Of a DNA stretch of 64,000 bases, positions 20,279 to 55,300 are shown in pieces. The translations under genes were made by a program, and so were the position numbers. Origin of the DNA: Massalongia carnosa. Its lineage: Eukaryota. Within the stretch, counting starts at the first letter, position 1; each line of letters starts with the position of its first letter. The notes beneath the pieces are model-generated. The model was not told where the DNA came from. It ran no database searches and was given only the letters and a program-made list of their open reading frames with translations. The stretch spans positions 496,001 through 560,000 of the forward strand of contig OZ287087.1 in assembly GCA_965645245.1 (NCBI GenBank). The letters run 5' to 3'.

Positions 20279-20307
20279 TATGGTTTTCCAGTACCTAGAA
20301 AAGTTTT

Positions 20308-30352: not shown

Positions 30353-31320
30353 GATGGTGATGCACCAGGTGAATAGGCAGGTCGAACGTAGTGTCACGGT
30401 GCGAGGTCAGGTAGGAATTCAGGTGGTGCAAACGTGTTACTTGATTGTCTAGCTAGGTGGACAAGACGTTCGACAAGGAGAAAAGAAACAGAAAATCCAA
30501 CGTGGGCGAGTATAAGACTCTGGCGAACGGAACTAGTCCCAATCCAGCCGTTGATCCAATTTCCCCAAGTCCCTAGCATGAAACTATCGCCATGACACTA
30601 TTGATAGTCGGAACACTTACCTTTGAACCGGATTAAGCTTAGTTCCTTTCGGATCGGCTAACCGGCTAGTGCTTCGTTCAAGCAGCTAAGGTTGATTCAA
30701 TGAACTAACTGGCAGGTGCCCAGTCACTCCATGACAATAGGTTGGTATCCAACAAGAAGGTTTTACTACTCAGCACCACGTAGAGGTTTCTGCTCGTCGC
30801 TGACCATAATGGTTATGAGACTCAAGCAGGAACGAGATGCTTAGGGACAGTCCCCCCCCGACCGTCCCCCCTGTGTAAATCTTTACTAGTAAACAGCTAT
30901 TTTACTACTCATCCAGGGTGCGTACAAGCTAGCAGTTACACTACGTATTAATAACGTTACTGTTACTAACTAAATGTATTCAACATCTACAAATCTACCT
31001 ATTGCGATGACTTCAATTCCAAAAACTCGTCAATCAATTGCGATACATCATCTTTTCTAGGCTTCATGATTTTAGCCACCTTTCTCATCATCGTTTCCTT
31101 TCTCGCTTGAGTCCTAATCTGTTCGACTGATTTCTCGACTCTTTCCTGAGATTCCAACTCCAACTGAGCCTTTGATTTCTTCGTCACATCTCGAGACCTT
31201 CGCGTTGTTGCGGAGGAAGTAGGAAGAATTTGACTGACGCGCACGTTTTGACTTAGACTATAAAGAGATGAAGGCGGCGCTGCCTGAAATAGTGCTTTTT
31301 GACTAGTTATGCTTGGCAAG

Positions 31321-31567
31321 TGTTAAATAAACAGTTGACGGCATAATGTTGAAATTACTACGGAGGTGACTGCCTATAGCAGTCATGGCAGCCTGCAGGG
31401 CTGAGCTAGAACTAATGGGGCTAAGCGAGTATTCCAACACCCTTCGAGCGTGGCTCCCCTTTCGCCTCCAAAATTGAAACTTTCCAGCTTTTATCACTCC
31501 CCTTGCGAAGTGATTCATCCAGCTGTGTCCGATTCGCTCCCCTTGCGGAACGAATCTAGCTCCCTCC
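31321..31567 (-). mobile_element. 3' LTR + internal piece of the TRIM-like Copia element X, inverted
   Basis: Reverse complement of ~58726-58978. Confidence 0.88.
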
Positions 31568-31663
31568 ACCTCTCCATCTGCCCCATCCTTCAATATATAT
31601 TCCCTGCTAGTATCCCCTCCATACCGGGAGACCCTTACTTGCTTCTACACCACTTTCTCTGGC

Positions 31664-34600
31664 ATGGCTAAAGGAGAGAGTCTGTACACATTCCCCAAAC
31701 TCATGGGGAGTGGTAACTATAAGAAATGGTCTAGAGACATGGCCTTCGCCCTGCAGGAAGCGGAACTCTGGAGTTATGTGACTGGTGCTCGGAAAATGCC
31801 CCGAGAGATTCCCCTTCCACCTAATAAACCTAGTGAGAAAGAGGGAGACCCTCCGGAGGAAACTTTAGAAACAGAAGAACAACTCGACAAAAGAGACCAA
31901 AGGGACCTTGAACGACTAGAGTTCTTGGAGAAACAAAGGAGGGTAGTTGGTAAGATAGGAAAGATGTGCACGGACGACGTGCAGCAAGAATTCCTGTCTA
32001 TGAGAGACCTAGCTAATGGAGCAGTCTGGGACCCAAAAGATCTTTGGGAACATCTAAAAACCCGGTACACTCTAAAGAATTGGAGTGCCAAATGGAGCAC
32101 CTTCAACCGGCTAGAGGAGATAAAATATGAAAAGTGCAAGTCCATCGAAGAATACGGAAGCCTTGTCAGGGACATCAAGGCCGAGATCACCGACATGGCC
32201 CTGACTGTCGAACAAATAGTCGTGCTTAGGCTTCTGAATGGACAAGGAAACTCGTTTAGCACCTATCTTACAATACTGAACGAGCAAGCCCGGCGTGAAT
32301 ATAAATTCCCTGCGCTGAATGCTTTGTTGAAAAACCTGGAGGACGAGGAAGCTCGCATGCGCCAGGACCCCATTGCCACAGCCAATGTGCTAAAGACAAA
32401 AGGGAAGACTAACAACAAAAAGCACCCCTCCGGAGCAAGGTCCGGAGAGGGTAAGACCAAATGCAACTGTTGCGGGAAGTTTCACCCTGGAACATGCAGG
32501 TATATCGACTCCAAATGCAAAACATGTGGTAAAGTAGGCCATTTAGAAAGCGTTTGCGAGGAAGGAGGCCATGAAGCCTCAAAGCCACAAATAGTCTGTA
32601 TGATAAGGGAATGTTCCGGGAAAAGTACCCAGGAAACACCGCTTATTTGTATGGGAAAACCGTCCCAAAGCCCCCAACGTCCCCAAAGCTTGTTACTCGA
32701 CTCCGGTGCAACCTCACATATTCTCTGCAACAAGGACTTCTTTCTAGAAGGAACCTTTCGGAGCGAGTACAACTTTCTAGAGACAGGGTCCGGAGAAGTA
32801 CTACCAACAGAGGGCACAGGCTCTCTGCTTATCCCGCTGGACAATGGCAATGGGAGTCAAACTGACCTCATTCTGACCGATGTCCTATACTCCCCACGCC
32901 TAATATTTAACCTCATCAGCACCATTAAGCTTGGTAAGAAAGGCATAGCAACATACCTGATGGCGGACGAGCAGCCCGCACAATCAGTGCACAAAGGAAA
33001 GGTGATTGGACTGGCCAAAACGATAAATAATCAATATATTTTGGAAACCACCATCAGCCCTATCGGTGCACGGGCCCTCACCACCACAAATTCTGCAAAG
33101 TCCCCTATTCAAATATGGCACGAGCGACTCGGCCACCTCAGCTATCCAAACCTCCTAAAACTAAATCACTTAGCCAATGGAGTCACCATCGAAGGACCCA
33201 TACCAGAAGAAGTATGCGGCCCATGCATGATGGGTAGACAACAGCGGAAAATAAATCGCACTCCAAGGACCCGAGCAACATAATTCCTGGGTCTAGTGCA
33301 TAGCGATTTGGGGGGACCATTCCCACTGACAAGGTTCGGTGAACGTTTTTATGCTACAATGAAAGACGATTTCTCCGGAGTAGTGTGGGTGTATTTGCTG
33401 AAAACAAAGGGTCAGACCTTTGAAATTTTCAAAGAGTTCAAAACATGGATAGAAAATCAATCAGGAAAGAAAATAAAGCACCTTCGAGCTGATGGAGGAG
33501 GAGAGTACACGGGTGGAGACTTCCAGAATTTCCTAAAAAAGGAAGGTATTCAATGGGAAGCCAGGGCACCGAATGTGCCCGAGCAAAACGGAAAAGCCGA
33601 AAGACAGAACTATACTCTCATGGTCCCTACCCGGTCCATGTTGAAAGCAAAGAAACTTCCAAAGTCTCTTTGGGGGGAAGTCCTGAAGACTGCTGGGTAC
33701 ATCAAAAATAGAAGTCCCGGGGTCGACGAGGTCACTCCATATGAACGCATGAACAATGCGAAACCCTTCCTCGGCCATATGAGAACGGTCGGGGCAAGGA
33801 GGTGGGTACATATCCCAAAGGAGAAACGAAAGAAATTGGATGATCGTTCCTGGCAAGGCATATTTGTCGGGTATGATGGAAACAATCAATATCGAATCTA
33901 CGATCCTCTCACTGGAAAAGTCCATGTTTGTCGCGATATCACCGTCGACGAAGGCAATATACATGATCTCAAGGACAAAAAGGCCTGGGACCTAGCCGAT
34001 ATTCCATGGGAGAAGAATGATGATGGTTTGTTTGATGATCCGGACGACTTTGTCGAAAATGAAGTCGAAATCCCAAATTCGTTATCTCCGATAAACCCGA
34101 ACTCCAAAATATCGAGAAGTTCGGAAGACCAACAGGTATCGGCCCCATCAACTCCACGAATAATGCTTCATCCAATGGGAGTAAATGCGTCGGGGGGAGG
34201 CCAAGCCGAGGAGAGTGAGGGGGAGGATGATCCAAGTGAAACGGAAGAAATTCCTTCACCCCTCATCGAACCTCGAAGATCTGGGCGATTAAGAGTTCCC
34301 AGTCAAAAGTCACTGGAGAACTCCCGTCCCAGCATAAATATATTCAGGTCAAACCAGGTGCCAGAATCCCATAAACATATGGTACGAGTGCTAATCACCC
34401 TGGCTAGAGGCGAGGACACAGAAGGCCTCGATGAACCTCTGACACTGAAAGAGGCAATGTCCTCACCCCACTGGGAACAATGGAAAAAGGCCATGGAGGC
34501 CGAATACCAATCCCTAGTGGAGAATGAAACATGGACACTAGAAAAAGCACCGACAGATCGAAAGGTGATCACCGGTCGCTGGGTGTTCAAACTAAAGAAA

Positions 34601-35964
34601 GACAGAAATGGGAAAGTACTAAAGTACAAAGCAAGATGGGTAGTTCACGGCTATAAACAAAAGGAAGGCCTGGACTACCTCGATACCTTTGCTACATGGT
34701 AAAACCAGTCTCCTACAAAGCATTGATGGGAATCAGTGTTAAAAAGGGGCTTTGCATTCACCACATGGATGTGGTGACTGCTTTCCTATATGGCTTCCTA
34801 GATGAAGCTATTTATGTCATACAACCCACCTTGTTCGAAAAAGGGGAGGACAAGGTCTGCTTACTACGAAAGGCCCTATATGGCCTAAAACAATCCCCTC
34901 GTGTATGGTACCAAACCTTGCAGGATTTTCTGCAAAAAATGGGGTTTAAACGGACATATTCGGACCATGGAGTTTTTGTATCGGACGATATGTTTATAGC
35001 GATTTACGTCGACGACCTCCTCATCTTCGACAAAGATACTTCAAAATTGCAGCAACTGCAACACGAATTGAAGTCTCGTTTCCGCATGACGGACTTGGGA
35101 GAAGTATCCCATTATTTGGGAATTGAGGTGAACGTCAACACCGAAAAATCGATTATAACTCTCCGACAAACAATTTATCTGAAGAAGATACTGCAGCGAT
35201 TTAATATGGTCGACTGCAGACCTATTTCCACCCCCATGGACCCCGGTGCCGGAAACACACTCATGCCGTCAGAAGACCAGGCCGACAAGAAAACAATTAC
35301 CTGGTACCAGTCGGTGGTAGGCTCGCTCATGTGGCCAGCCATGCATACACGCCCCGATATCGCTTATGCAGTGGGAGTACTGAGTCAATATTGTTCGAAC
35401 CCAGGCCCATTACACTGCAAATATCTTCAGCGCATTATGCGCTATATCTCCAGTACCCTAAATGCAGGCCTCGTGTTTAGAATAGACACCGAGGATGACA
35501 TTGTGGGGTACTCGGACTCGGACTATGCTGGAACGAAAGATGGAAGAAAATCGACAGGGGCCTATACATTTTTGTTAGCAGGCGCCCCGATTTCTCACTG
35601 TTCCAAGCTACAACCTACCGTCGCCCTATCCACCTGCGAGGCCGAATATATGGCCCTAACAGAAGCAGCTAAAGAGGCCATTTGGTGTGCACGATTTCTG
35701 ACCGAGCTGGGATACCGGAAGAAGGGCCACCCAGTCCTACTTCGAGGGGACAATCAAGGGTCAATTGCACTGGCCGAAAACCCGGAGTTTTACCGTCGCA
35801 CCAAGCACATTGAAATCAAATGGCATTGGATACGGGAGGTGGTTGAATTGGGAAAGATAAAAATCAAATTTATCTCGACCAAAGAGATGGTGGCAGATGG
35901 GCTTACGAAGCCACTGGCCGCTAAACCCTTTGAGGACTTTAAGTTAATGCTTGGCAAAAACTAA
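31664..35964 (+). pseudogene. Copia B gag-pol with an in-frame stop (33281-33283) and a frameshift (~34697)
   Basis: CCHC knuckles, LLDSGA, WHERLGH, HSDL..ADGGGE..E, YVDD, YSDSD motifs. Confidence 0.9.
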
Positions 35965-36167: not shown

Positions 36168-39100
36168 TGTCAACCTTTCACATGAATTCAGGAAGGATGA
36201 AAAAGGCTGTATTCTGTATGTGGGAAATGCCCACATCTAGCTACCTATATAGAAAGGAAAAGGGGTCATGGCAGCAACGATATCAACCCCGGCAAATTGA
36301 GGGGTAAAGGTGTGGAAGAAATGGCGTAGCTTAGCGGCATCTGCCGCGACAGGGGGTCGAGGATCGGCGATGAGAATCGACCACATTCAGGTTTGACACA
36401 CCCCCCCAGGATGCGAAGCATCCTGACCAAAAGAAGAAAACATGAAGCAATTCCCATTCGAGAAAAAGGTGCAATTCTTGCAAAATCAAAATGAGATGCC
36501 AGTGAAAAGAAATTTCTGCCCGCCGAGAGGAATTCCGCCCGGTTCACTCCCGCCTGCCCCATTCCTAAATCAGACACTTGATATCAATAAGGCCTAGCAT
36601 TTCCAGAAAGGAACGATGCTTTTGCGGAGGCAAGGGCTTGGTGAGACCATCTGCCGTCATCCGGTTGGTCTGTAGATAACCCACATTGAGATGACCAAAT
36701 TGAACGCTCTGTCTCAACCACAACTGAGCGATGTCTACATGCAGAAGTTTGGTGGTAACTTTGGGCTGTTCCGACGTCAGAATGCGGATGGTCTGCATGT
36801 TATCATTGTAGATTTTGACCGAATGGTCGTAGTCGAATCCCAGCTTGCCAAAGAAATTAATCCACCAGATGCATGCCTTGCCGGCATGGAGAAGGGCAAG
36901 CAATTCTGCCTCTGTCGTCGAAGTTGAGACGGTCGCCTGCTTCCTGGCAGCCCAGTCGATCATGCCGCCATATAGCTTGAATGTGAAACCCTCGTAGCTG
37001 CGTCGCTCGGGACTATTTGCAAAGCTGGCATCGGCAGTGTTTTCGAAGACATGCTTTGCCGAGAGCTGATCATCATCCGGAGACTGCACGGTAAGCTCGC
37101 CACCTCCCGAGGGTGAGTATTTTATCGCCAGATACTTAGTCGCGTGTAGATATTGCAGGCAGTGATTTGCCGCGTCTAGATGCTCCAGACCGGGACAGGT
37201 GAGATGCTCTGCCAATTTGGAGGCAGCTTTGGCAACGTCCGGCCGAGTGATATTCGCGGGATAGCAGATCGATCCTACCTTTTTACGATATTCCTGCCTC
37301 AGGGATTGGTCGACTGACCGAGGCGAGTCCGAGTCTGGGCTAGCTGCCGAGGCAGAGGTGAATGCGATGAAGTCTGACGGTAGCGGGGATGACGGAGATT
37401 TAGACGTGTCTATCTCGTATTCAATTGCCAACTTGTCCATGTAGGAGTCTTGACAAAGATAAATGTCGCCAGCATTTCGAACAATCCGTACACCGAGAAA
37501 GAAGCTCAATTGGCCCATGTCGCGTAATTCAAATCGAGCATTCAACTTCTGAATCAGCAGATCTACGTCTGCAGCTCTACTTTCCGGAAAGATGATGACT
37601 ATGTCATCCACATAGAAAAAGAGGATGATGCCAGAGTAGTCGGTAAAAAGGCAGGGCTCGCCAGGGATCTGCTGCATGTCCAATGAGGTGAGTGCTTTGG
37701 AAAATTCTCGTAGCCATAGTAGAGGCGATTTTCGAAGCCCGTACAAAGCCCGGACCAGGAGCAAGCATTTCCCCTCGATGACGAAACCATCTGGCATGTA
37801 CACGTGGATGACCCTATCGGCTTTGGCATTTAGGAAGGCATTGATCGCGTCAAACTGCCTTGTCCTGAGTCCGAAAGCAGACGTCAGGGCCATGAGGCAC
37901 CTGAAGATCTTAATTGCCAGCGTAGAGGCGTATACATCTTCCGCCGAGACTTCTTCCAAATCCCCTCGGACTACCAGGCGTGCCTTGTATTTTACTAGAA
38001 AGCCATCCGGGTCGAACTTGTATGTAAATACCCACATTAGTGGAAGCGGCTTCTGATTGGAAGTTTTGGGAATGACGACGAAGGTGTCCATTCTGAGAAG
38101 AGTCTGATATTCAAATTCGGCTGCTTTGCGAAATCCTTCTGCATGGGGATGTCGAAGCATACCTCGCCACTGCTTCGGCGGCGGCGGCAGGCTGTCCCTA
38201 TGCAATCTGGTCGACCTAGTAGTCACTGCAAATGCCAAATAAACTTCCTTCATCCCGTCATCCAATCCCGAGTTTGTATTCCCTAGTGGTTCCGAAGCGA
38301 TGCCGAGTGGTCTGATGCCGAGAGGTGCTGCGAGATTTGCGAATTTCTGCTTCGGTTTTCTGACTCGTTTTCCTTCGACGATATTGCTGACATCCAATTT
38401 GGCAGATCCGATATTCCTACTGGGACCGGTGCCAAAAGATTCGGCAATGCCGAGAGGCGTCCGGCCGGTTTCTGGCAGATCAGTCGGTAGATCTATGCTA
38501 CTCGGAAGACTGTCTTTTACCACCCGTTTGTCGCGAGATGTTGACGAAGAAGATGTAGGTGCAGGTGCTGAAGTCGATGGAGGCGGAGTGCTCTCGGGAG
38601 TCGGAAGATGCTGCTGACTCGGTGAATGTCTCGGCATGATAGGGACGTCTTTCGCAGTCAACGACGCGGGCACATCCAGTGCGGACGAATTTTCAACCGA
38701 CGAAGAAGGATCAGCAAATGACCGATTGCGCACAGATGTCGCCAGCCATTGCTCCTCATTTTCTGCCAAATCAACAATGTAGGGAGCAGCATCGAAAACT
38801 TCCAGCTCTACAAACTCGGCCACCTTCTCTTCGGGAATCAGATCCTTTTTGACGTATGTGGAGAAGGTTTGATCCTCATCAAAGATAACATCTCTATATC
38901 CGCTGACCGACCAGGTCTCGGGATTCCAGACTCGATAAATGTTTGTAGAATCGTATCCGACCAGATAGCCAACAAATGCTCGAGGAGCTAGTTTCTCACT
39001 TTTTGGCGGGGCATCTTTACCTTTCAGAAGGGGATATGCCTTGCACCCAAAGACCTTGAGATGACCAATTTCGGAATTGTATGGCTTCTTCAGGGCTCGG

Positions 39101-41996
39101 TGCAGGGAGATGTGAGGCGATTTCCAATCTAGTCCTTTTGTCGGCGTCCTATTTAGCAAGTGTCCAGCAGCGAGATAGCACTCGGGATACAGATCTTCTG
39201 GCAAATCGGCGCCGATGCGAATGCATCTAGCCTTCTGAGTCAAAAGGCTTCCTGCCCTCTCAGCCGACCCATTCTGCTCCTTAGTATGCTTTGCGGACCA
39301 TTCAAACGCGATTCCCTGTTCCTTGACGAAGTCCTGAATGACGTCTCCAACCGACGTTTCCTGATCCATTCGAAAGGTCTGAACGAAAAGACCGAATTCG
39401 GCTCCGAGTCGATCGCACCGATTTATGACATGCTTGACAATCCTAAGTAGTGTCTCCTGCTTATGATCTTGCAGGGGGAAGACCCAATGAAACGAGGTGA
39501 AATCATCCTGAAAATGAGCGACGCAGGTGGTCCCATCGAAAGCAGTCCTTTTCAAAATAATGAGGTCAAAATGAAGACGCTGGAATGGTTTAGTGGCTTT
39601 AGTAGCCGAGACCCTTGATACTAGTGTATGCATTTTTGACAATGCGCACGTCTCACATTTCACTGTCTTTGGAGCATCTTGACCACTGTTACCTCTTGAA
39701 ATCTCAATCATCTTCTGATTCGACAACTGGTTAATGACTTCCGGTTGGCAATGTCCTAGGCGGAGATGAAATTTCCATGGCGTGCCTTTTGGGATGGCAT
39801 CTGCCGAGACTCGGGAACCGACGAAATTTGCGAAAGCACCAGCGTGGCCAACGGGACGATACTCGGCAGTGTAGAGACCGAAATGCTCTTCCAATTCGAA
39901 GATTGAAATACCCTTCTTCTCGACCGTGTCCGTATGCATGTTCCACAGAAATCCATCCTTTTTCAGCTTGCTGACCGAAATCAAAGTCACCGATGAGTCG
40001 GGAACGTATGCTGTGTGTCGAAAATGCAGAGGCTGATTCTTCCCTTTTAGTGTCCCATTCACCAACATTGTCCCAAAACCTTCAATAAGGAGATCTCCGT
40101 CGGGAGTCGAGACCCACTCGTATGCCGGGATGATTTCGTCAATAAAACGGGATTTGTCCCAGGTCAGATGATTGGAGCATCCCGAGTCGTAGGAGACGCT
40201 GAGATGAAGCAGATTGTCGCGATCCGAGATAGTATTTCCAAAAGAGACTGGAGCATTCTCGACAACAGGGAGCTCGGCGGGAGCATTGCCATTGCCTCGG
40301 CCACGACCTCCATCTCCGCGACCCCCTCGACCTCCACCTCTTCCTCTTCCTCGAGGTTTCAAAGGTTCATCAGGCTCGGAGATGCCGTTGAGAATGTCGG
40401 ATGTAGCGGCGCGTTTGACATACCAATAAAGCTTGGAATTGGACCCGATTTTTTGTCGGATGTGGTCGCGTATCTCCTTATTGAATTTCCATCCCGAGAT
40501 TCTAGACTCGACTGTCAAATAAGGGCATCTTTTCCAGGAGTGAGTTTCGCCGCAAAGGCATTCGTTATTGCTGTACTTGCTATCGTCAGAAGTGGAATTT
40601 CCCCGATCGGAAGACTGTCCTTGTAGAGAAGCGGAATTCGCCGAGAGCTGCTGACGACGACCAGTGCTGATTGCATTTTCTTCTATCTCGGTCCGATACT
40701 CATTGGCGGCCTCGAAGAATTTAAGGGGACGACCTGATACATTTCGTATCTTGATCCAGGTGTCGCAAAAGAATGGTGCCCATATCCGAGCGGCTTTCAG
40801 AAAGTGCTGAGTGTAGATATACTCACTATAGATGGGTTCAACTTTCAAAGCAACGATTTCTTCCCTCAGCGTTTCCCATTGGCAGATCCAAGATTCGATC
40901 TTCCCTTTCACCGGGTGAGAATTTCTCAACTCGTCGTATTGGCGATCGATCTGCCTTTGAACTTCGTCCGGACTCTTTTTGAATTTATGGGCCAGGGACT
41001 GAAGAATTTCTCGAACCGAGGATGATCTGACATTCCTGGCGACATAATCTTTAGCCGACTCTAGGATGACCGTATGAACCTTCTCAATTCCCATGGCTGC
41101 GGCCCTGGCATCTGCCTGAAGCCCTCGATGTGACCGTTCATCTGCATTGTACGACTCCTTCTGTGATTCCGAGAGATCGGCATACCGAGAACATGGTTCG
41201 GGAATCAGGACCGGCGGGCCATTTAAATCGCCGAGAACTGTCCCTTGAGAAGAACCTTGAGAAGCGACAATAGCAGGCGTAGGGATATTGGTAGAGTCAG
41301 TGCCAGGCGTATTAACCGGGACGACTTTGACGTAATCACTGAATTTGGGAAATTTGGGAATGGTAGGTTCCGATTCTGATCCTTCCGGATCGACGTACTC
41401 CCATACCTGAGATCGTACTGCGATACCCTTGATTTCCGACAACCAGGAATTGTAGGTCCTAGGCGTCAGAGCCGAGACGATGAGTTTCCGAGACGATCCC
41501 GACGAGTAGTCTTCCATTTGGGATAACCGACCAAAGATGGAGACAGATGGGAAAAACAGGGAAACGACCAAAAAGGCAAAGGAAAATAGAAGCACGAGGA
41601 ATAAATCAACTCTGCGATGCTCCATGAGAGATACGATAATTCCGGCGGCGATACTCAGCCTGCCTAGGATATTTCGGGGTCGATGAAGGCAGCGATAAAT
41701 CAGCTTACCAATAACTAAAGTTAAGACGGAGGCAGCGAAAAACTCAGCTAACCCGGGCTCATAACTGTCAACCTTTCACATGAATTCAGGAAGGATGAAA
41801 AAGGCTGTATTCTGTATGTGGGAAATGCCCACATCTAGCTACCTATATAGAAAGGAAAAGGGGTCATGGCAGCAACGATATCAACCCCGGCAAATTGAGG
41901 GGTAAAGGTGTGGAAGAAATGGCGTAGCTTAGCGGCATCTGCCGCGACAGGGGGTCGAGGATCGGCGATGAGAATCGACCACATTCAGGTTTGACA
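36168..41996 (-). mobile_element. Full-length Copia element C1
   Basis: 231-bp LTRs 36168-36398 and 41766-41996; TSD ctgct; PBS-like gttatgagcccgg. Confidence 0.97.
36565..41625 (-). CDS. Copia C1 gag-pol polyprotein (intact)
   Basis: YDSGC protease, FHLRLGH, integrase core, YVDD RT, ADASF RNase H. Confidence 0.93.
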   Translation of the reverse strand: MEHRRVDLFLVLLFSFAFLVVSLFFPSVSIFGRLSQMEDYSSGSSRKLIVSALTPRTYNSWLSEIKGIAVRSQVWEYVDPEGSESEPTIPKFPKFSDYVKVVPVNTPGTDSTNIPTPAIVASQGSSQGTVLGDLNGPPVLIPEPCSRYADLSESQKESYNADERSHRGLQADARAAAMGIEKVHTVILESAKDYVARNVRSSSVREILQSLAHKFKKSPDEVQRQIDRQYDELRNSHPVKGKIESWICQWETLREEIVALKVEPIYSEYIYTQHFLKAARIWAPFFCDTWIKIRNVSGRPLKFFEAANEYRTEIEENAISTGRRQQLSANSASLQGQSSDRGNSTSDDSKYSNNECLCGETHSWKRCPYLTVESRISGWKFNKEIRDHIRQKIGSNSKLYWYVKRAATSDILNGISEPDEPLKPRGRGRGGGRGGRGDGGRGRGNGNAPAELPVVENAPVSFGNTISDRDNLLHLSVSYDSGCSNHLTWDKSRFIDEIIPAYEWVSTPDGDLLIEGFGTMLVNGTLKGKNQPLHFRHTAYVPDSSVTLISVSKLKKDGFLWNMHTDTVEKKGISIFELEEHFGLYTAEYRPVGHAGAFANFVGSRVSADAIPKGTPWKFHLRLGHCQPEVINQLSNQKMIEISRGNSGQDAPKTVKCETCALSKMHTLVSRVSATKATKPFQRLHFDLIILKRTAFDGTTCVAHFQDDFTSFHWVFPLQDHKQETLLRIVKHVINRCDRLGAEFGLFVQTFRMDQETSVGDVIQDFVKEQGIAFEWSAKHTKEQNGSAERAGSLLTQKARCIRIGADLPEDLYPECYLAAGHLLNRTPTKGLDWKSPHISLHRALKKPYNSEIGHLKVFGCKAYPLLKGKDAPPKSEKLAPRAFVGYLVGYDSTNIYRVWNPETWSVSGYRDVIFDEDQTFSTYVKKDLIPEEKVAEFVELEVFDAAPYIVDLAENEEQWLATSVRNRSFADPSSSVENSSALDVPASLTAKDVPIMPRHSPSQQHLPTPESTPPPSTSAPAPTSSSSTSRDKRVVKDSLPSSIDLPTDLPETGRTPLGIAESFGTGPSRNIGSAKLDVSNIVEGKRVRKPKQKFANLAAPLGIRPLGIASEPLGNTNSGLDDGMKEVYLAFAVTTRSTRLHRDSLPPPPKQWRGMLRHPHAEGFRKAAEFEYQTLLRMDTFVVIPKTSNQKPLPLMWVFTYKFDPDGFLVKYKARLVVRGDLEEVSAEDVYASTLAIKIFRCLMALTSAFGLRTRQFDAINAFLNAKADRVIHVYMPDGFVIEGKCLLLVRALYGLRKSPLLWLREFSKALTSLDMQQIPGEPCLFTDYSGIILFFYVDDIVIIFPESRAADVDLLIQKLNARFELRDMGQLSFFLGVRIVRNAGDIYLCQDSYMDKLAIEYEIDTSKSPSSPLPSDFIAFTSASAASPDSDSPRSVDQSLRQEYRKKVGSICYPANITRPDVAKAASKLAEHLTCPGLEHLDAANHCLQYLHATKYLAIKYSPSGGGELTVQSPDDDQLSAKHVFENTADASFANSPERRSYEGFTFKLYGGMIDWAARKQATVSTSTTEAELLALLHAGKACIWWINFFGKLGFDYDHSVKIYNDNMQTIRILTSEQPKVTTKLLHVDIAQLWLRQSVQFGHLNVGYLQTNRMTADGLTKPLPPQKHRSFLEMLGLIDIKCLI

Positions 41997-43367: not shown

Positions 43368-43702
43368 TGTTGGATGTTAGATGATGAGGCCACCATCATC
43401 ATGGGCATCCATCATGAGCCTCGGGAGGTGCCTTGCAAAGTGCCCAAACAAGCAGAGATGGGAGACAAGGTCTGACCGTCAGGGGGACAAGGTCTGACCG
43501 TCAGGAGGACAAGGTCTGACCGTCAGGAGGACAAGGTCTGACCGTCAGGAGGACAAGGTCTGACCGTCAGGGGGACAAGGTCTGACCTCCTAGATGTGAC
43601 TGTTTTGTGACTGCTATATAAAGCAGACAAATAGCCCACATAGATAATCACCTTCAATGACAATCATGCTACTATACCTACAAAGTGAATTTATATTTCA
43701 TA
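43368..43702 (+). mobile_element. Solo LTR of the Copia D family with TG..TA termini and six 22-bp internal repeats
   Basis: TSD cttct; matches the LTR at 60535-60778, which has two repeat units. Confidence 0.88.
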
Positions 43703-44331
43703 CTTCTTCCTCCTCTTTCTCCTTCTCTTCTACCTCTCCCCGCACAGCAAAGCCGTTTCCCTATCATCATCATCATCCACTACCTCAGGAACTTTGTCTA
43801 CCATTTAGCATCGAGCATAATCCTCCCCATGACGAGAAAGCAAACGTTATTCAAGTCGCTTCTCACGGCGGAACCACCCAGTATCTTTGTCATATAGGTC
43901 GGAAAGCCGGCTAAAACACACCTCGGCTCCCTTCAGCCCGTTCAGTAGACCTCATTCATCCCAAAGCTCAATGAAAGACTCGAGTGATGAAATGCTCAAG
44001 TACATCAAGACCTCCGTCGGGATTACGACAAGCGAGAAGGCAACTACGTTGATGAACATACAAGGACTCCTATTCGACGAAGACTGTCATTTTACTGTCA
44101 GACTTGGTCAAGTCTTGCGGGGGCTGGTAATGCACATTTTAGGTGTAGCTTCTTAAGGATTAAACTGATGAACGATGATTAACAGTACATCGCAGATCGA
44201 ACCTTTTCATAACACTGTCATCACACCGTCGTCACGCCGACAAGGATATTACGATCACATCAGAAATAAGAGTCGAATCAGAAACGCACCAAACCCGTAA
44301 TTCAGCGATCATGTTAAGCCATTGAACAACT

Positions 44332-45986
44332 TTATACTAGAATTTCGTTCAGCTTCATAAGTATCTAAAGACATTGTTAGCACGAGCTTTCCGTAAAAGC
44401 CGTATAATTGATAAACCTTGTCAATGTATTTCACACCCACTAAGACACCATCCTGGTCTTCGAACTCGCTCTGATCGCCAAAATCTGCATTGTCTTGATC
44501 TAGGCAAGTCAGACAGTTTATCACAACTTCCTCGTATCGCTCTCCCATCCGCTTGGATAGATCGCGTTTCGCAACAGCGATCAGGCGCTCTTTAATCAGA
44601 GCTGGCTGTTTGAGTTCGGGGCTGTTCAAAGTAATGCCGAGTGCTGCGGCAGGAAGAGGGGCTGTCACACCATCCGCATATGATACGAATGACTCCCACA
44701 ACCCAACCTCCAAAAGACAGACACCTAGGCTGTAGATGTCATGTTGCATGGTATAGATTTCCTCAGGGTTCAATCCCTGACGATGTGGGTGACGGTAGAG
44801 ATTCTTCTCCCAAGTAGAGTCACCTGACCGCCTTGTTCGACCATCTACTGTGCGCATCTTCTCGAAACCGACAAGGAAGAACAAGCCAAACTCAGATTCA
44901 TTAGTTTGGAAGCCAAGAACAGTCTCGGGCCGGACGTTCTTGTGCACAAAGCCAAGTGTATGGACATAGCTGATAGACTTGGCCAGTTGTTTTGCAAGCT
45001 GGAAACGGTCTGTAAGTGTATGATCGAAATATGAGGAGAGATAACTCCGAAGACTTCTAGGCTCGTTGCTGAGCTCTCTGGGTATTCGGAATATGAAATC
45101 AAAAGAGGATGATCTCCCGCTGCTGGGTTCCATAACTCGAACTACACCGCGGCACTGAAGTATGCCGAATGTAAGAGGGTCCACAGAAGAGAGTTTTCTT
45201 GCAAGCTCCCTTACATCTCTTGTCATCAAGCCTATGTCGACTTCCGGATCGCATGGGATGCGGTCTACCACGAACCATTTGTCCGAGCCAGCTCTCTGCA
45301 TACACTTCGCAGATGCGAAAGGAATCTCGCGCATCCCCGCCGTCTCAAGTCCATCTTTTGGAAGGAAAACGGAGACTTTCTGAAGAGGCTGCTCCCTCAG
45401 AGCGTCTCTAAGGCTATGCGTGCCGGTGAACGAAGATATCGCCGACCCATTTCTGCTCAGCTCCTGATCAATCAAGGGACTTGAGACCTTCAGGATTAAA
45501 AACCAAGATGGATCGAACAACTTCTGCCATGAGGTCAAATCCTCAATAGATTCATCAAGACATTTTTTAATCAGGACATATTTCAATTTATTTACTTCTA
45601 TAACCCAGCCATTTGTTGCTTGATTATCGGATCTCCTTTCGGACAGTTTAACAAGTTTAGAGGTTATGAGGCTTAATTTGTTGATTAGTACCTGGTAAAT
45701 CTGATCCTGAATTGATTGATGTTCCTCGTCCAGGCCGTTCCATATCCGCTTGATAAAGTCTAGTTGTAAGTCTGTGCGTTTCCAGTGATTTTCTACGCAG
45801 AGTACTCGCTCATTTATCTCGGCCTCTGCGCCCTTGAAGGTTGCGCATGTCTCGACAAGAATCTTACCATATCTGGATTGTGTCAGATGGCAGTGCAACA
45901 GAGAGAGAATGGAGACGAGCAACTCACTTGATACATAGGTCGGCTGTTGCAAAAACAGCAAACGTTATCCCGACTACTTCTGCCAT
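44332..45986 (-). CDS. HeLo-like domain + pseudokinase (MLKL-like) protein, ~515 aa
   Basis: Exons 45986-45928, 45872-44417, 44364-44332 (GT..AG, in frame). Hydrophobic N-terminal helix MAEVVGITFAVFATADLCIKYGK and a helical domain, then a kinase fold with VHKNVRPET, LVGFE, LYRHP, DIYSLGVCLLE. HeLo assignment is by family recognition, not by a search. Confidence 0.85.
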
Positions 45987-46541
45987 GAGTCACGACAGTG
46001 TACTTGGATCCTGGACACAAAAAAAGCGGTAAATGATGGGGAAGAGAGACGTCGTTGTATTCCATTAGGCGGAACACTCGATAGAGGCGGTGTCTGCTCT
46101 AGCTAGATAGGGTAAAGCTTGAGCTTGGGGATGTGATGGCGGGGCTGAATCCTAAGGCAGAAGGCATAAGGCTAGATTTCGTTTTCCGTAGCCATCATGA
46201 GAACGAGCTTATACCTACCTATATCATAAAGGGGTGTTTGAGAGGTCTCCTTCACGCTCTGCCAGTCAGAATAACCGGACCCTGTCATCTCCGTTGAATC
46301 CGGCGCCTCTGACGACGACCCCGTCGCTGATGCGGAGCAGTGCTCAGGCTTCGGGATGTAGGTCAGGCATAGTTCACATACTACACTATGGTACATGAAT
46401 GACCGACCATCTTTTGCGCGTTGTGATTGTAAGCTGTGATCGGTGACTGCCGGTATCCTACGATTTGCGCGTGAGTTCGAGCTGATGATCTACAGACCAA
46501 GCGCCTCCTGTCCGCACAAGAGCAGATGTCAGATCGCTACC
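45987..46541. promoter_or_regulatory. Putative bidirectional promoter region
   Basis: 555 bp between divergent ATGs; no TE recognised in it. Confidence 0.55.
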
Positions 46542-48811
46542 ATGCCACCTATTTCAGACCTTGTGCAGGTTTCAAAGGTCGAGACTCAATTCCACTCTGA
46601 TCCGGAATATACGCAACACGTCCAGTACGTATCTAGAAGTACGGCAAGACAAAGAAAAGTTCGCATGGAGGAAAAATGGATGAGAGAAAGGATGCTAGGA
46701 AGTGGCAGTTTCGGAATCGTCTGGTTAGAGCGGTGTATTCAAGGGAACAGTGAAGGGAAAGTACGAGCTGTAAAGAAGGTCCGAAAACTTGAGTCCAGCG
46801 ATTATTACAGAGAATTGGAAGCTATTTCTCTGTTTTCTCACAGCAATGTAAGTCTACTGCTGTTATTTTTTCACAACCTACTTTTCCACACCTTACGCTA
46901 ACGTCAAGCTAGTATGAACGATGCTTTGTTAAGTCCTTCGGCTGGTATGATGATAGTGACAGCATATTTATTACTATGGAGTATCTTTCATATGGTGATT
47001 TGCATAAGTACCTCGGTTCACCGCTACCAGAGAAGGAAGGACAGCATATCGTTTTTCAGATCCTCGAAGGCTTACAATTCATGCATGATAAAGGGTTCGC
47101 TCACAGAGATTTAAAGCCAGCTGTAAGCCTAGCTACATGCATCAATATAATCAGAAAATTAGCTAATACTCTAAGTAATACAGAACATACTAGTTGTGGA
47201 CAAAGGCCCAGAGTGGTGGGTCAAGATCGCAGACTTTGGAGTCAGCAAGCGGGCAACAGAGGGACTTACAGCATTAAGAACCCAAAGAGGCACACCTGCT
47301 TTTACGGCACCAGAAGTACTTGGCTTTATTCAATTGAACGACGAATCAAATGATTCGTATACAAACGCTGTTGATATCTGGTCTCTGAGTGTTATCACAT
47401 TCTTCATACTCACCGGCGAGATTCTTTTCAAAGACCCGCGCCGTCTAGGTCAGTATGTTGCGGGCAACTTTAAATTTCCTTTGAATGTCTTGCTTGTAAA
47501 CAAAGTAAGCGGACAGGGATGCGACTTCTTAAAAAGCTCAATGGCGTCAAAGTCTGAGGATCGTCCAAGGGCTAATGAATGTTTACAACATTCGTGGTTG
47601 GATTTTCTTATAGAAGACGCGGCTCCTGACACTCCAAGGTATTAATTCTTATAGATGGAGACAGAAAATTATTATGATATCTTATAACAATAATGTTGTT
47701 GTGTTGCTGATATCTTTGCAGAAAAATCAATGTTACAAAGCCAATGTCAACACCGCTGGACTGTTCAGATCCTGAGCCCTCTGCTAGTTGGAGCACTCAA
47801 GACTCAATTTCGGCCTACGAGACGCATAGCTCTACGGGCGTGCTTACTAAAAAGACATTGTCTACTTCTAAGGAAGCAGTCGCACCTTCAAAATCAGAAC
47901 CAGCGACTCAAATCTATTGGCATATGGCAAGCATCCTCAAGGGTCATTCGGGTTCTGTTGGGGCGGTGGCGTTCTCGCCAGACGGGAAGCAGATCGCGTC
48001 CGCATCGTGGGACACGACGATCAGGCTCTGGGACTCGGCCACGGGGGCTTCGCGCAACATCCTCGAGGGTCATTCGGATTCTGTTTTCGCGGTGGCGTTC
48101 TCGCCAGACGGGAAGCAGATCGCGTCCGCATCGTCGGACACGACGATCAGGCTCTGGGACTCGGCCACGGGGGCTTCGCGCAACATCCTCGAGGGTCATT
48201 CGGATTCTGTTTTCGCGGTGGCGTTCTCGCCAGACGGGAAGCAGATCGCGTCCGCATCGTCGGACACGACGATCAGGCTCTGGGACTCGGCCCCGGAGGA
48301 TTCGCGCAACATCCTCAAGGGTCATTCGGGTGTGGTTTGGGCGGTGGCGTTCTCGCCAGACGGGAAGCAGATCGCGTCCGCATCGTGGGACACGACGATC
48401 AGGCTCTGGGACTCGGCCACGGGGGCTTCGCGCAACATCCTCAAGGGTCATTCGGGTGTGGTTTACGCGGTAGCGTTCTCGCCAGACGGGAAGCAGATCG
48501 CGTCCGCATCGTCGGACACGACGATCAGGCTCTGGGACTCGGCCACGGGGGCTTCGTGCAACATCCTCAAGGGTCATTCGGGTGTGGTTGGGGCGGTGGC
48601 GTTCTCACCAGACGGGAAGCAGATCGCGTCCGCATCGTGGGACACGACGATCAGGCTCTGGGACTCGGCCACGGGGGCTTCGCGCAACATCCTCGAGGGT
48701 CATTGGGATTCTGTTGACGCGGTGGCGTTCTCGCCAGACGGGAAGCAGATCGCGTCCGCATCGTCGGACACGACGATCAGGCTCTGGGACTCGGCTACAT
48801 GGGCGGCGTAA
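46542..48811 (+). CDS. Ser/Thr kinase-WD40 (7 high-conservation repeats) fusion, copy 3, intact, ~686 aa
   Basis: Exons 46542-46847, 46913-47122, 47184-47638, 47722-48811 splice in frame. GSGSFG, AVKK, HRDLKPAN, DFG, APE all present. Confidence 0.92.
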
Positions 48812-49723: not shown

Positions 49724-52088
49724 GATGATGATGATGATAAATTCTTACACCGATATGTCACCGGCCGAAGGCCGTCCCATGCGGGCGTGGTTCTATATGA
49801 CTATTGTACATAGGAAAACCTTTTAAGGAATAAAAACCTAGTAACCAAAATTATCGCCTGCGGGATCCCCATGACCCCTCAGTGTACCTAATAACGTGTA
49901 TCTGTGAGGTCCTTGAAAGAAAACGGAAAAGAACGAAAGAAAAGGGGAGGAAGTCAAACATTTCAAATGCTGTGTCGACGGGAACTATCCGTACAGCATG
50001 GTCGCTGCAATTGAATACTGTTTTAGTATATCTGCCCGCATTAACCATGCTGTCAGCTTTTTCAATTTTGCGGAATTTTCAATTATCGTGCGATAATTGT
50101 TAGTTTTCACTTGATTAAATAATTCATTTCTTCCGTCTATCAGCTGACAGTGCATGATGACGTGTTTGGCCGTCTGCCTTGGCCATCCACATATGCACGC
50201 CGGTGAGTTTACATTGGGTACCCTTCGGTTGAAAAGAAAGTTGGCTAGCCCGATTTTCTCCGTGCGAATTTGCGTTGCTAGTGAACTCTCCGCTTTTGCC
50301 AAATTGCTGTGAATTTTTAATCTCTTTTTGTCAAGCGAAGCTTGTTGAGCCTCGGTGGGGAGTGGAATGCGATTTTGATAAGTCGCCCATGTTGACTTCC
50401 ATATTTTCATATGATGCTCCATGAGCCGCGTATGATGTGCCCGTTGGGCCGTTCGCGCTTCTCTCAGCTCCTTGAGATATTCTGGACTGGCCTCGTACCA
50501 CGGGGGCGCGGAAGGCGGTAATCTGACGGCGGCCTCTCCATTTAAAGTTGCCTTGGCCCATGTGTGTTTCAGTTCTCCGGGTGTTGGCGGCGGAGTTTTT
50601 CTTCGACCCGCTCTTTCCCGTAGCTTATTAGCTATTATCTTGCATGCGGAGTTAGCGAGTGCTTTTTGCCCCGTGATTCGTAGTCGATATCTGGCTTTAG
50701 CCTGTAGTTGATCCAAATACACATCTATTGGGGCTATGTGTGTTTCTGCCTCCAGCACCGGTATCGGGGTAGCCTTGAACGCTCCGGCGACTGTGCGTAG
50801 GCATCTGTTCTGAATGACCGCCAATTTGGACGTTATAGATTTATTTCTATTTACGTCTTTCGGGGTGTGCCAGACGATTGAACCATATGTCATGGCCGGC
50901 CGCACCACCGCCGTGTATACTTGCCTGGCCCTAGCGAACGAAGCTCCCCAGGTAGACGTGGAAATTTTTGTTAAGGCCATGCTCTGCTTGAGCATCTTCT
51001 CCTGCGTTTTCCGTATGTGAGCACCCCACTTAAGTTTGGTATCTATTTGAAGACCGATTATTCTTATATCCGCTTTTGGTTTGATTAGGCTGTTTTCTAT
51101 ATTAATAGTAGCCGTCATATCAAATTTCTTTGGATTTCTAGATATTTTATTATTATTATTAATTCATTAAGCGTATGCATCCTAAGGATATGACGCTGTG
51201 ACTGCTATTTATGTACATAAACAACAGTCAGGAAGTGGAAACCTGGCCCCCAGGGTAAAACCACTCCCTTTTTCCATGTTGAACGCAACGAGAACGTCCT
51301 TCTACCACGCGGTGCATACACCCAGATCTTCAAGCGCTAGGAATCCTATAGACTCGATGAACTAGACAGTGTATTTCCACACGTTCGACGAACGTTCTCT
51401 CTCTTTAAGTGTTTTGATTCAATGGAGGAAAGACTGGCCGTGATCGAGGGCAGATCGTGGTGTCGTATAAATGAAGGTGTGTAAGTGTGGCCATTCTAAA
51501 TGAATGGGCTTTTTCGATGTGGTGAAAGGCTTCCGCCTGAGGGGTGTGGCCATTCCGAATGAATGGGCTTTTTCGATGAGGTGAAAGGCTTCCGCCTGAG
51601 GGGTGTGGCCATTCTGAATGAATGGGCTTTGTATGTGTGCCTTCGAGGTGACGAATGATCAGTAGAGACGTTGATCGTTCAAATGGCCACCGAGGTGGAC
51701 TTCTGCGTTGGCGCTGATCAGATATTGGCCACCTCCGAGGAGGTGTTGATAGCCTGCACCACGTAGAGGTTTCTGACCCAGCAGGCCGGATTTCTAGATA
51801 AATGAATAAGCTCGTACTTAGTCGGAGCAAATAAGGATCCGTGCCGTAGAGCCCATCTTTCACATTCTCTGTGAATTCTTTCTAGCGTTCTGCAATTTTC
51901 TTGCGTGCTTTCCCCATATGCTAGTATATTGATGTCATCGACGAATCCGAGTCCGCTCGTTTTCGTGCCGGGCCTGTTACATATGTCTAGTAAATCCGCA
52001 TTGTAGAACAAATACAGAATGGGAGAGATGGGTGAACCTTGCGGAATTCCGGTTCTCGCATCAAACTCGTCGGTGGTTCGTCGGTTGA
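49724..52088 (-). mobile_element. Duplicate of the LINE part of chimera A, interrupted by a 643-bp retroposon
   Basis: Near-identical to 4068-5776 with the same flanks. Confidence 0.9.
51145..51787 (-). mobile_element. Short non-LTR retroposon (SINE or 5'-truncated LINE)
   Basis: 13-bp TSD ggatttctagata; (TAA)n/A tail; ~59-bp internal tandem repeats. Confidence 0.8.
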
Positions 52089-52313
52089 CTAAGAATGATA
52101 AAATAGAGTTGACATCTCCTTCGTGAAGTCTCTATCCTAGTTTTCGTTCATCTCACTGGTGCGTTTTACGGCCTAAGACTATTGATGAATTCTACGATTG
52201 GGGTGAACGACGTCCCTTTCGCCCAGGTCAAACCCAGTTTACTGTTGGAATACTCGCTTAGCCCCATTAGTTCTAGCTCAGCCCTGCAGGCTGCCATGAC
52301 TGCTATGTATAAG

Positions 52314-55300
52314 TGTCAACCTTTCACATGAATTCAGGAAGGATGAAAAAGGCTGTATTCTGTATGTGGGAAATGCCCACATCTAGCTACCTATATAGAA
52401 GGGAAAAGGGGTCATGGCAGCAACGATATTAACCCCGGCAAATTGAGGGGTAAAGGTGTGGAAGAAATGGCGTAGCTTAGCGGCATCTGCCGCGACAGGG
52501 GGTCGAGGATCGGCGATGAGAATCGACCACATTCAGGTTTGACACACCCCCCCAGGATGCGAAGCATCCTGACCAAAAGAAGAAAACATGAAGCAATTCC
52601 CATTCGAGAAAAAGGTGCAATTCTTGCAAAATCAAAATGAGATGCCAGTGAAAAGAAATTTCTGCCCGCCGAGAGGAATTCCGCCCGGTTCACTCCCGCC
52701 TGCCCCATTCCTAAATCAGACACTTGATATCAATAAGGCCTAGCATTTCCAGAAAGGAACGATGCTTTTGCGGAGGCAAGGGCTTGGTGAGACCATCTGC
52801 CGTCATCCGGTTGGTCTGTAGATAACCCACATTGAGATGACCAAATTGAACGCTCTGTCTCAACCACAACTGAGCGATGTCTACATGCAGAAGTTTGGTG
52901 GTAACTTTGGGCTGTTCCGACGTCAGAATGCGGATGGTCTGCATGTTATCATTGTAGATTTTGACCGAATGGTCGTAGTCGAATCCCAGCTTGCCAAAGA
53001 AATTAATCCACCAGATGCATGCCTTGCCGGCATGGAGAAGGGCAAGCAATTCTGCCTCTGTCGTCGAAGTTGAGACGGTCGCCTGCTTCCTGGCAGCCCA
53101 GTCGATCATGCCGCCATACAGCTTGAATGTGAAACCCTCGTAGCTGCGTCGCTCGGGACTATTTGCAAAGCTGGCATCGGCAGTGTTTTCGAAGACATGC
53201 TTTGCCGAGAGCTGATCATCATCCGGTGACTGCACGGTAAGCTCGCCACCTCCCGAGGGTGAGTATTTTATCGCCAGATACTTAGTCGTGTGTAGATATT
53301 GCAGGCAGTGATTTGCCGCGTCTATATGCTCCGGACCGGGACAAGTGAGATGCTCTGCCAATTTGGAGGCAGCTTTGGCAACGTCCGGCCGAGTGATATT
53401 CGCGGGATAGCAGATCGATCCTACCTTTTTACGATACTCCTGCCTCAGGGATTGGTCGACTGACCGAGGCGAGTCCGAGTCTGGGCTAGCTGCCGAGGCA
53501 GAGGTGAATGCGATGAAGTCTGACGGTAGCGGGGATGATGGAGATTTAGACGTGTCTATCTCGTATTCAATTGCCAACTTGTCCATGTAGGAGTCTTGAC
53601 AAAGATAAATGTCGCCAGCATTTCGAACAATCCGTACACCGAGAAAGAAGCTCAATTGGCCCATGTCGCGTAATTCAAATCGAGCATTCAACTTCTGAAT
53701 CAGCAGATCTACGTCTGCAGCTCTACTTTCCGGAAAGATGATGACTATGTCATCCACATAGAAAAAGAGGATGATGCCAGAGTAGTCGGTAAAAAGGCAG
53801 GGCTCGCCAGGGATCTGCTGCATGTCCAATGAGGTGAGTGCTTTGGAAAATTCTCGTAGCCATAGTAGAGGCGATTTTCGAAGCCCGTACAAAGCCCGGA
53901 CCAGGAGCAAGCATTTCCCCTCGATGACGAAACCATCTGGCATATACACGTGGATGACCCTATCGGCTTTGGCATTTAGGAAGGCATTGATCGCGTCAAA
54001 CTGCCTTGTCCTGAGTCCGAAAGCAGACGTCAGGGCCATGAGGCACCTGAAGATCTTAATTGCCAGCGTAGAGGCGTATACATCTTCTGCCGAGACTTCT
54101 TCCAAATCCCCTCGGACTACCAGGCGTGCCTTGTATTTTACTAGAAAGCCATCCGGGTCGAACTTGTATGTAAATACCCACATTAGTGGAAGCGGCTTCT
54201 GATTGGAAGTTTTGGGAATGACGACGAAGGTGTCCATTCTGAGAAGAGTCTGATATTCAAATTCGGCTGCTTTGCGAAATCCTTCTGCATGGGGATGTCG
54301 AAGCATACCTCGCCACTGCTTCGGCGGCGGCGGCAGGCTGTCCCTATGCAATCTGGTCGACCTAGTGGTCACTGCAAATGCCAAATAAACTTCCTTCATC
54401 CCGTCATCCAATCCCGAGTTTGTATTCCCTAGTGGTTCCGAAGCGATGCCGAGTGGTCTGATGCCGAGAGGTGCTGCGAGATTTGCGAATTTCTGCTTCG
54501 GTTTTCTGACTCGTTTTCCTTCGACGATATTGCTGACATCCAATTTGGCAGATCCGATATTCCTACTGGGACCGGTGCCAAAAGATTCGGCAATGCCGAG
54601 AGGCGTCCGGCCGGTTTCTGGCAGATCAGTCGGTAGATCTATGCTACTCGGAAGACTGTCTTTTACCACCCGTTTGTCGCGAGATGTTGACGAAGAAGAT
54701 GTAGGTGCAGGTGCTGAAGTCGATGGAGGCGGAGTGCTCTCGGGAGTCGGAAGATGCTGCTGACTCGGTGAATGTCTCGGCATGATAGGGACGTCTTTCG
54801 CAGTCAACGACGCGGGCACATCCAGTGCGGACGAATTTTCAACCGACGAAGAAGGATCAGCAAATGACCGATTGCGCACAGATGTCGCCAGCCATTGCTC
54901 CTCATTTTCTGCCAAATCAACAATGTAGGGAGCAGCATCGAAAACTTCCAGCTCTACAAACTCGGCCACCTTCTCTTCGGGAATCAGATCCTTTTTGACG
55001 TATGTGGAGAAGGTTTGATCCTCATCAAAGATAACATCTCTATATCCGCTGACCGACCAGGTCTCGGGATTCCAGACTCGATAAATGTTTGTAGAATCGT
55101 ATCCGACCAGATAGCCAACAAATGCTCGAGGAGCTAGTTTCTCACTTTTTGGCGGGGCATCTTTACCTTTCAGAAGGGGATATGCCTTGCACCCAAAGAC
55201 CTTGAGATGACCAATTTCGGAATTGTATGGCTTCTTCAGGGCTCGGTGCAGGGAGATGTGAGGCGATTTCCAATCTAGTCCTTTTGTCGGCGTCCTATTT

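Follow-up and report, generated by a model that had tools for sequence, protein, structure and literature searches.

A head-to-head gene pair of Massalongia carnosa encoding an MLKL-like bundle-pseudokinase and a kinase-WD40 protein, a possible two-gene cell-death switch

Organization of the gene pair

The assembly of Massalongia carnosa (GCA_965645245.1) comprises 25 contigs with a total of 52 Mb. The window analysed is a stretch of 64,000 nt of contig OZ287087.1 (positions 496,001 to 560,000), and coordinates refer to it unless a contig or another locus is named. It contains two divergent genes, a pseudokinase gene on the minus strand and a Ser/Thr kinase-WD40 gene on the plus strand. The 555 nt between their start codons (45987..46541) presumably act as a shared promoter.

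The pseudokinase gene consists of three exons (45986-45928, 45872-44417 and 44364-44332, minus strand), which join into 1548 nt coding for 515 amino acid residues and a stop codon, with no internal stops. Exon 1 (45928..45986, 59 nt) encodes a hydrophobic first helix (residues 1-20), exon 2 (44417..45872) what remains of the helical bundle together with brace-like helices and pseudokinase domain, and exon 3 (44332..44364) the final residues and the stop. The two predicted introns on the minus strand, of 55 nt (45873..45927) and 52 nt (44365..44416), are delimited by GT and AG and contain the branch-like sites CTGAC and CTAAC, respectively. The short C-terminal tail behind intron 2 recurs at the end of homologues. 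The nearest named protein relatives are from lichen-forming and other ascomycetes.

The initial annotation had placed the true N-terminus in a spliced 59-nt first exon, and this start is upheld: the reading frame joins across intron 1 and a short hydrophobic exon is kept in homologues. An equivalent upstream peptide, short, hydrophobic and ending in D-[LIV]-x-x-[KR], was present in 33/44 metagenome loci, a tally made by eye on the best-scoring upstream ATG 100-165 nt 5' of the main exon. Named fungal homologues (e.g. P0014, P0037) open with the same kind of hydrophobic N-terminus, and a hydrophobic segment before [YF]G opens 28 of 150 distant representatives, the others having different annotated starts or not fitting the [YF]G pattern. 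Residues 1-19 are the 19-residue window of highest hydrophobicity in the protein (mean KD 1.78). At the level of sequence, exon 1 is supported by homology.

The partner gene (46542..48811, plus strand) encodes a protein of 686 amino acid residues that affiliates with the Pfam families Pkinase and WD40. Its four predicted exons (46542-46847, 46913-47122, 47184-47638 and 47722-48811) represent the sole consistent splice solution within the ranges tried.

Degenerate catalytic motifs and the activation loop

The catalytic loop of the pseudokinase reads VHKNVRPET (44947-44921, minus strand, residues 329-337), with HKN in place of HRD, and GFE replaces DFG (44869-44861, minus strand, residues 355-357). 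The position equivalent to the VAIK lysine of strand beta-3, as judged from strand order, is occupied by aspartate (D223, 45263..45265, minus strand). Among 150 non-redundant near homologues, out of 196 aligned, this position holds D (132), E (11), N (6) or T (1) and never lysine. In the same set H330 and K331 are invariant, N332 is found in 133 sequences with no Asp at that position, and the GFE motif is kept as G355 in 150, F in 148 and E in 126. In a distant set, made up of the 150 best representatives sharing 36-63% identity with the homologue P0004, Asp returns at the third position of HKN in 4/150 sequences.

The segment following GFE (KMRTVDGRTRRSGDST, residues 358-373) had been described in the initial annotation as rich in Ser and Thr, offering acceptors where RIPK3 phosphorylates MLKL. 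Five of its 16 residues are Ser or Thr against a background of 12.8%, a marginal enrichment (binomial p = 0.045). One position stands out in the homologue alignments: T366 (44834..44836, minus strand) is Ser or Thr in 150/150 near homologues (148 Thr, 2 Ser) and in 149/150 distant ones (125 Thr, 24 Ser). The remaining Ser and Thr of the loop vary already among near homologues (T361 54/150, S369 82/149, S372 99/149, T373 42/149). Since T366 is near-invariant while S369 and S372 decay with distance (16/149 and 40/149 in the distant set), the loop is, according to these alignments, one with a single conserved acceptor. The idea of a poly-Ser/Thr loop was dropped in favour of this single site; a conserved acceptor is thus retained from the earlier description, a conserved cluster is not. 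The refuting condition named in the initial annotation, loss of the loop Ser/Thr among homologues, does not hold for T366.

In RD kinases, the phosphate of the activation loop is held by the arginine of HRD together with a basic residue located a little behind DFG. K331 and R360 (44852..44854, minus strand) match these phosphate-ligand positions and are kept throughout, K331 in 148/150 distant representatives and R360 in all 150 sequences of both sets. This suggests that a phospho-switch has been retained in a dead enzyme, with R360 and K331 as candidate ligands of a phosphate on T366, although the conserved Thr may instead be structural. The activation loop has a pLDDT below 50 in the exon 2 model, in which the K331/R360/T366 pocket is not resolved.

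Helical bundle and fold of the pseudokinase

A model of residues 1-181 of P0004, which is 81% identical to the pseudokinase, has a pLDDT of 77 and shows helices at residues 3-32, 38-68, 71-103 and 108-139. By this model, the N-terminal part of the M. carnosa protein (45515..45986, minus strand, about residues 1-139) is a four-helix bundle that may resemble those of HeLo proteins and MLKL. Short helices follow at about residues 143-180 (45392..45505, minus strand) according to DSSP in two models, with a pLDDT of 53-79; they are brace-like by position and may have that role. The model of exon 2, calculated with 57 sequences (pLDDT 76.5), likewise begins with long helices, and short helices connect these to a kinase fold. 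The modelled succession of four long helices, brace-like helices and pseudokinase gives an MLKL-like architecture, in support of the initial interpretation.

In a Foldseek search with the exon 2 model, mouse MLKL (PDB: 4btf) ranked second (E 1e-6, TM ~0.4, rmsd 16.7) and was the sole match listed that spanned both parts, over about 500 columns. By fold, the kinase domain alone shows no special closeness to MLKL: BRAF (Z 17.8) and SOBIR1 (Z 17.7) scored above rat MLKL (Z 16.5, rmsd 4.5, 241 aligned residues), and a sequence search with the kinase domain placed BRAF first and no MLKL among the best 60 of 702 matches. The bundle alone aligned with MLKL 4btf at Z 9.1 (rmsd 2.7, 98 aligned, rank 11) and with the CC-R domain of NRG1.1 at Z 8.4; unrelated bundles reached Z 10-12, and the similarity score to MLKL lies within the range of common helical bundles. 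Foldseek with the bundle alone returned no match at E <= 0.001. When the PDB was searched by sequence with the N-terminal alignment, matches to the kinase part of full-length rows prevailed, and the outcome does not bear on the bundle.

According to a passage of PMC12463104, mouse MLKL carries HRN and GFE in place of HRD and DFG and keeps the lysine of VTIK/VAIK. The parallel drawn in the initial annotation therefore holds for the loss of both aspartates but not for the beta-3 lysine, which is missing here. As the fold is no closer to MLKL and MLKL is not among the 60 sequence matches listed, the resemblance of HKN and GFE to the MLKL motifs may have arisen by convergence.

The hydrophobic first helix, which had been likened to the membrane-inserting helix of HeLo proteins, is conserved, but the Pfam HeLo family (PF14479) did not match the pseudokinase itself. 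Matches were absent for exon 2 at E <= 0.1 and for the full-length homologues P0004, P0037 and P0083 at E <= 0.001, and HeLo was not among the best 25 of 58 families listed for the alignment. HET-S HeLo structures were also absent among the best 50 structural matches listed for the bundle and among the rows of its Foldseek search, which leaves a likeness possible. In the ESM Atlas, a PF14479 cluster (93% HeLo) was the first match (0.94, 179/256 features), a score that is uncalibrated for parts of proteins. L037, a distant paralogue encoded by the same genome, clears the Pfam HeLo cut-off (31.8 versus 23.2 bits) and also matches DUF7580 and Pkinase. Because of this first ESM Atlas match and the score of L037, the bundle of the pseudokinase is likely of the HeLo type.

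The partner kinase and its WD40 repeats

The catalytic motifs of the partner kinase are intact (GSGSFG, AVK, YRELE, HRDLKPAN, DFG and APE). This neighbouring candidate activator is not named in the initial annotation. Neither a NACHT nor an NB-ARC domain was found in it, and the succession of kinase, linker of about 80 amino acid residues and WD40 repeats leaves no room for one. The RHIM core [IV]Q[IVL]G, searched as a simple pattern, is absent from both kinase and pseudokinase, and no pattern match to a PP-like motif was obtained at the pair.

Seven WD40 repeats of 126 nt each (47942..48799, plus strand) are near-identical except for a few positions. The 75 units from 11 arrays of the same genome have a mean nucleotide identity of 0.905, with variation concentrated at positions 4, 5, 7, 23 and 25. 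Their spacing equals that of positions 11, 12, 14, 30 and 32 in the HNWD receptors of Podospora, which are five of the seven positions used there according to a passage of PMC12222747. No claim of positive selection is made for these sites: the estimate of pN 0.51 over pS 0.33 is circular, because the positions were chosen for their variability.

At the junction of kinase and repeats lies a short conserved linker motif, PSASWST (47774..47797, plus strand). The pattern S[AGQ]xW[ST] occurs in 19/66 kinase homologues scanned. It was seen in the otherwise divergent linker behind the kinase at six loci (L061, L069, L098, L102, L107 and L113), including partners devoid of WD40 repeats. It may serve for docking or autoregulation; some of the pattern matches elsewhere are due to chance.

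Conservation of the pairing

At the threshold of E <= 1e-30, the pseudokinase family comprises 1145 clusters at 50% identity. In bacterial and archaeal genome contigs, 11 pattern matches were obtained and none was confirmed, by a search that detects close relatives only.

A related kinase adjoins the pseudokinase in 52/80 metagenome loci, arranged head-to-head in 43, in tandem upstream in 3 and in tandem downstream in 6; the other 28 have none. When loci were required to have at least 1500 nt upstream and a complete 5' end, 28 were dropped, and the kinase was present in 43 and absent in 9 of the 52 kept. After clustering at 90% identity, a kinase neighbour was found in 28/35 clusters, head-to-head in 25, and the other 7 were orphan pseudokinases. 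The median gap between the profile matches of the 43 head-to-head loci is 642 nt. In flanking sequence beyond 4.5 kb, 208,140 nt in all, no kinase was detected with the same profile, which was built from relatives of the partner kinase and is less sensitive to other kinase families. A comparison of locus tags, for which the kinase search scored 428 candidates, paired kinase and pseudokinase under adjacent tags in at least 5/14 tagged cases (Psora, Endocarpon, Brigantiaea and two Polycauliona), spanning Lecanoromycetes and Eurotiomycetes.

The partner kinases keep HRDLKP in 40/46 loci and the catalytic Asp in 45/46, and their tails are swapped. A scan of 28 loci, with 32 ORFs picked from 115, assigned WD40 repeats to 7 tails, ankyrin repeats to 2, KA1 domains to 2, TPR to 1 and a weak SH3 to 1; in 15 no domain was recognised. 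The partner kinases of L059 and L073 end in the KA1 domain and have no repeats. At L061, a second kinase gene (4041-4820) is located immediately behind the partner kinase.

In 37 pairs, the distances among pseudokinases and those among kinases are correlated (Mantel rho 0.45, 0/2000 permutations), as linkage alone would predict. The nearest neighbours match between both genes in 12/37 pairs.

Copies and surroundings in the M. carnosa genome

Both genes belong to a duplicated unit (43703..48795), of which the genome contains four more full copies of 94-98% identity. Each of the five close pseudokinase copies lies opposite a kinase; a further six kinase copies lack a neighbouring pseudokinase match, giving 11 kinase versus 5 pseudokinase copies. 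Of the five pseudokinase copies, three are frameshifted, and the two intact ones are separated by a single base. Up to the first repeat, neither stops nor frameshifts interrupt the kinase part in 8/11 copies, a count in which assembly errors are possible. Repeat-induced point mutation (RIP) was considered as the cause of the decayed copies and rejected, CpA-type changes amounting to 6-11/44 substitutions per broken pseudokinase copy with no clear signature.

The second full pair with an intact pseudokinase (L031) lies 46.8 kb upstream, in positions 1-3063 of the window and G000:C21:493610-495064. Its pseudokinase is one base and its kinase 24 substitutions apart from the pair studied. Its WD40 array is distinct, with 14 counted units in two blocks and part of the linker duplicated in between. 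A kinase-WD40 copy without pseudokinase, with four repeats and an early frameshift in the kinase, occupies positions 18107-20308.

The surroundings of the pair are rich in retroelements and repeats. Copia-type LTR retrotransposons of 99.3% identity with full ORFs flank it at 36168-41996 and 52314-58145. Gypsy-type, second copia-type, LINE-like and transposase-like ORFs, labelled from reading their translations, are located at 25230-30406, 31514-35964, 49985-52131, 4329-5819 and 11185-17292. A short tandem repeat of about 24 nt (43500-43600) lies just outside the left boundary at 43703 that is common to the full pair copies.

Among seven distant paralogue loci, of about 20 listed for the genome, five lie opposite a divergent gene that has a match to a Pfam kinase family and two are near-copies of those; ankyrin repeats follow the kinase in 4 of the 5 distant pairs. 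L035, L036, L037, L038 and L040 (G000 C20, C21, C14 and C12) encode pseudokinases of the HeLo/DUF7580 type facing a kinase of a different-looking type with ankyrin or Sel1 repeats. In L035, L036, L038 and L040 these kinases carry HGDLKP or HGDVKP. Judged by sequence, DUF7580 may be a pseudokinase family, since its matches fall on the pseudokinase region; no mention of DUF7580 was found in the literature searched.

Proposed mechanism and alternatives

The MLKL-like build of the pseudokinase, the adjoining intact kinase with variable repeats and the kept pairing together make a kinase-triggered switch of two genes probable. We lean slightly towards reading the locus as a fungal cell-death switch in immunity or allorecognition, RIPK3-MLKL-like and operating without an amyloid relay. 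The plus-strand gene would be the sensor, its variable WD40 repeats binding a non-self or damage ligand, and binding at the repeats would activate the Ser/Thr kinase joined to them. The kinase would then phosphorylate T366 in the activation loop of the minus-strand pseudokinase directly, with activating sign; K331 and R360 would hold the phosphate and the pseudokinase would change shape. Through the brace-like helices this change could be transmitted and the four-helix bundle freed, whereupon the hydrophobic first helix would enter the plasma membrane and the compartment would be killed.

The sign of the signal may be the opposite. The kinase would restrain the executioner by constant phosphorylation or binding, and death would follow when the kinase is blocked by a pathogen factor or a foreign allele, a logic of guard or of toxin and antidote. 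Both intact pseudokinase copies adjoin a kinase part with neither stop nor frameshift, the kinase is present in more copies than the pseudokinase, and an invariant T366 is compatible with any phospho-switch. Against this stand the orphans: the 7 clusters without a nearby kinase, in whose genomes a kinase elsewhere is possible, fit a protein that does no harm when its kinase is missing, and the kinase is absent at L046 but present at L061, a relative of 90% identity. We regard a restraining kinase as unlikely.

In a second alternative, the pseudokinase regulates or scaffolds the sensor kinase, as in the allosteric modules for which JAK, STRAD and tandem kinases are models; the bundle would serve for oligomerisation or as a membrane anchor, and the output would be phosphorylation of other targets rather than a pore. 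The pseudokinase is not specifically MLKL-like and the matches of the bundle are generic, which agrees with such a module. It is disfavoured by the family-wide conservation of the hydrophobic first helix, by the first ESM Atlas match and the Pfam score of L037, and by the membrane targeting known for HeLo first helices (described in a passage of PMC12881547), so that this arrangement appears rather unlikely. Distinctly unlikely is a mere co-inheritance of the two genes through a shared divergent promoter in a defence island, another kinase or ligand triggering the pseudokinase. In its favour, the trees are partially discordant (e.g. the pseudokinases of L093 and L096 are 81% identical, their kinases distant) and orphans of either gene occur; against it, the pair survives changes of orientation (9 tandem loci) and is also kept with the second, different-looking kinase type.

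If the preferred reading of a kinase-triggered switch is extended beyond this locus, filamentous ascomycetes would possess a large undescribed class of NLR-free modules, in which repeat-sensor kinases phosphorylate one Thr of a clustered HeLo-pseudokinase. In the M. carnosa genome, up to 8 sensor kinases with distinct WD40 surfaces could then converge on 2 near-identical executioners. We hold this generalization to be evenly balanced between true and false. Such modules were probably built independently of animal RIPK3-MLKL.

Significance and comparison with known systems

The combination of a kinase with a HeLo-pseudokinase is undescribed in the open-access literature searched, and it is absent from the passages of PMC9815663 and PMC4986451. 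The architecture is already mentioned in a review; the two-gene pair was found in none of the papers searched. A figure legend of PMC12881547 refers to some HELL domains fused to kinase or pseudokinase domains, and a passage of PMC11476962 mentions fungal MLKL homologues. In the parts of reviews consulted, fungal necroptosis-like pathways consist of an amyloid relay to HeLo proteins and no counterpart of the kinase step is described; a passage of PMC12881547 urges work on the extent of conservation between fungal and animal necroptosis. If the proposed mechanism is true, the pair would represent the missing kinase arm of fungal necroptosis. It would then join NLR-amyloid and protease-gasdermin as a third class of clustered fungal sensor-executioner systems, one with interchangeable sensor tails, and would inform the question of a single or a repeated origin of MLKL-type switches. 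Since the locus offers candidates for the kinase, for its substrate and for one target residue, the question narrows to a two-gene reconstitution.

With MLKL and RIPK3 the pair shares the order of bundle, brace-like helices and pseudokinase, a candidate phospho-acceptor in the activation loop and an active kinase as candidate trigger. The fungal pseudokinase has Asn for the Asp of HRD and GFE for DFG as in MLKL, and the motifs of the partner kinase are all intact, as expected of an activator of the RIPK3 type. Unlike MLKL, the fungal protein has no Lys at the presumed beta-3 position and one invariant Thr instead of a cluster; unlike RIPK3, the fungal kinase is RHIM-less, fused to sensor repeats and encoded beside its pseudokinase. 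As the beta-3 Lys and the RHIM are missing, the sequences give no grounds for assigning the pair to either the MLKL or the RIPK3 family.

Among fungal systems, passages of PMC12881547 and PMC10197012 describe HET-S/NWD2 and HELLP/PNT1, which likewise have a bundle with a hydrophobic first helix and adjacent genes for sensor and executioner. These systems use an NLR and amyloid templating, whereas here the regulatory domain would be a pseudokinase. In the fungal gasdermin and protease clusters, an enzyme fused to WD40, TPR or ANK repeats is also clustered with a pore-forming executioner (passage of PMC12881547), a design of like logic; here a kinase takes the place of the protease and a bundle-pseudokinase that of gasdermin. 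The het-V locus of Podospora combines a proposed writer enzyme, the methyltransferase HET-Va, with an MLKL/HeLo reader-executioner, HET-Vb. It differs in employing a methyl mark and TUDOR rather than a phosphate and a pseudokinase, and sensor repeats are not mentioned in the passages of PMC9262711. Identity with HET-Vb was ruled out, as those passages describe it with TUDOR and no pseudokinase. Finally, the HNWD-type NLRs het-d, het-e as well as het-r differ from the partner kinase, which has neither HET nor NACHT and whose repeats are joined to a kinase; with it they share WD40 repeats of 126 nt and high identity, with hypervariable positions at matching spacing (passage of PMC12222747).
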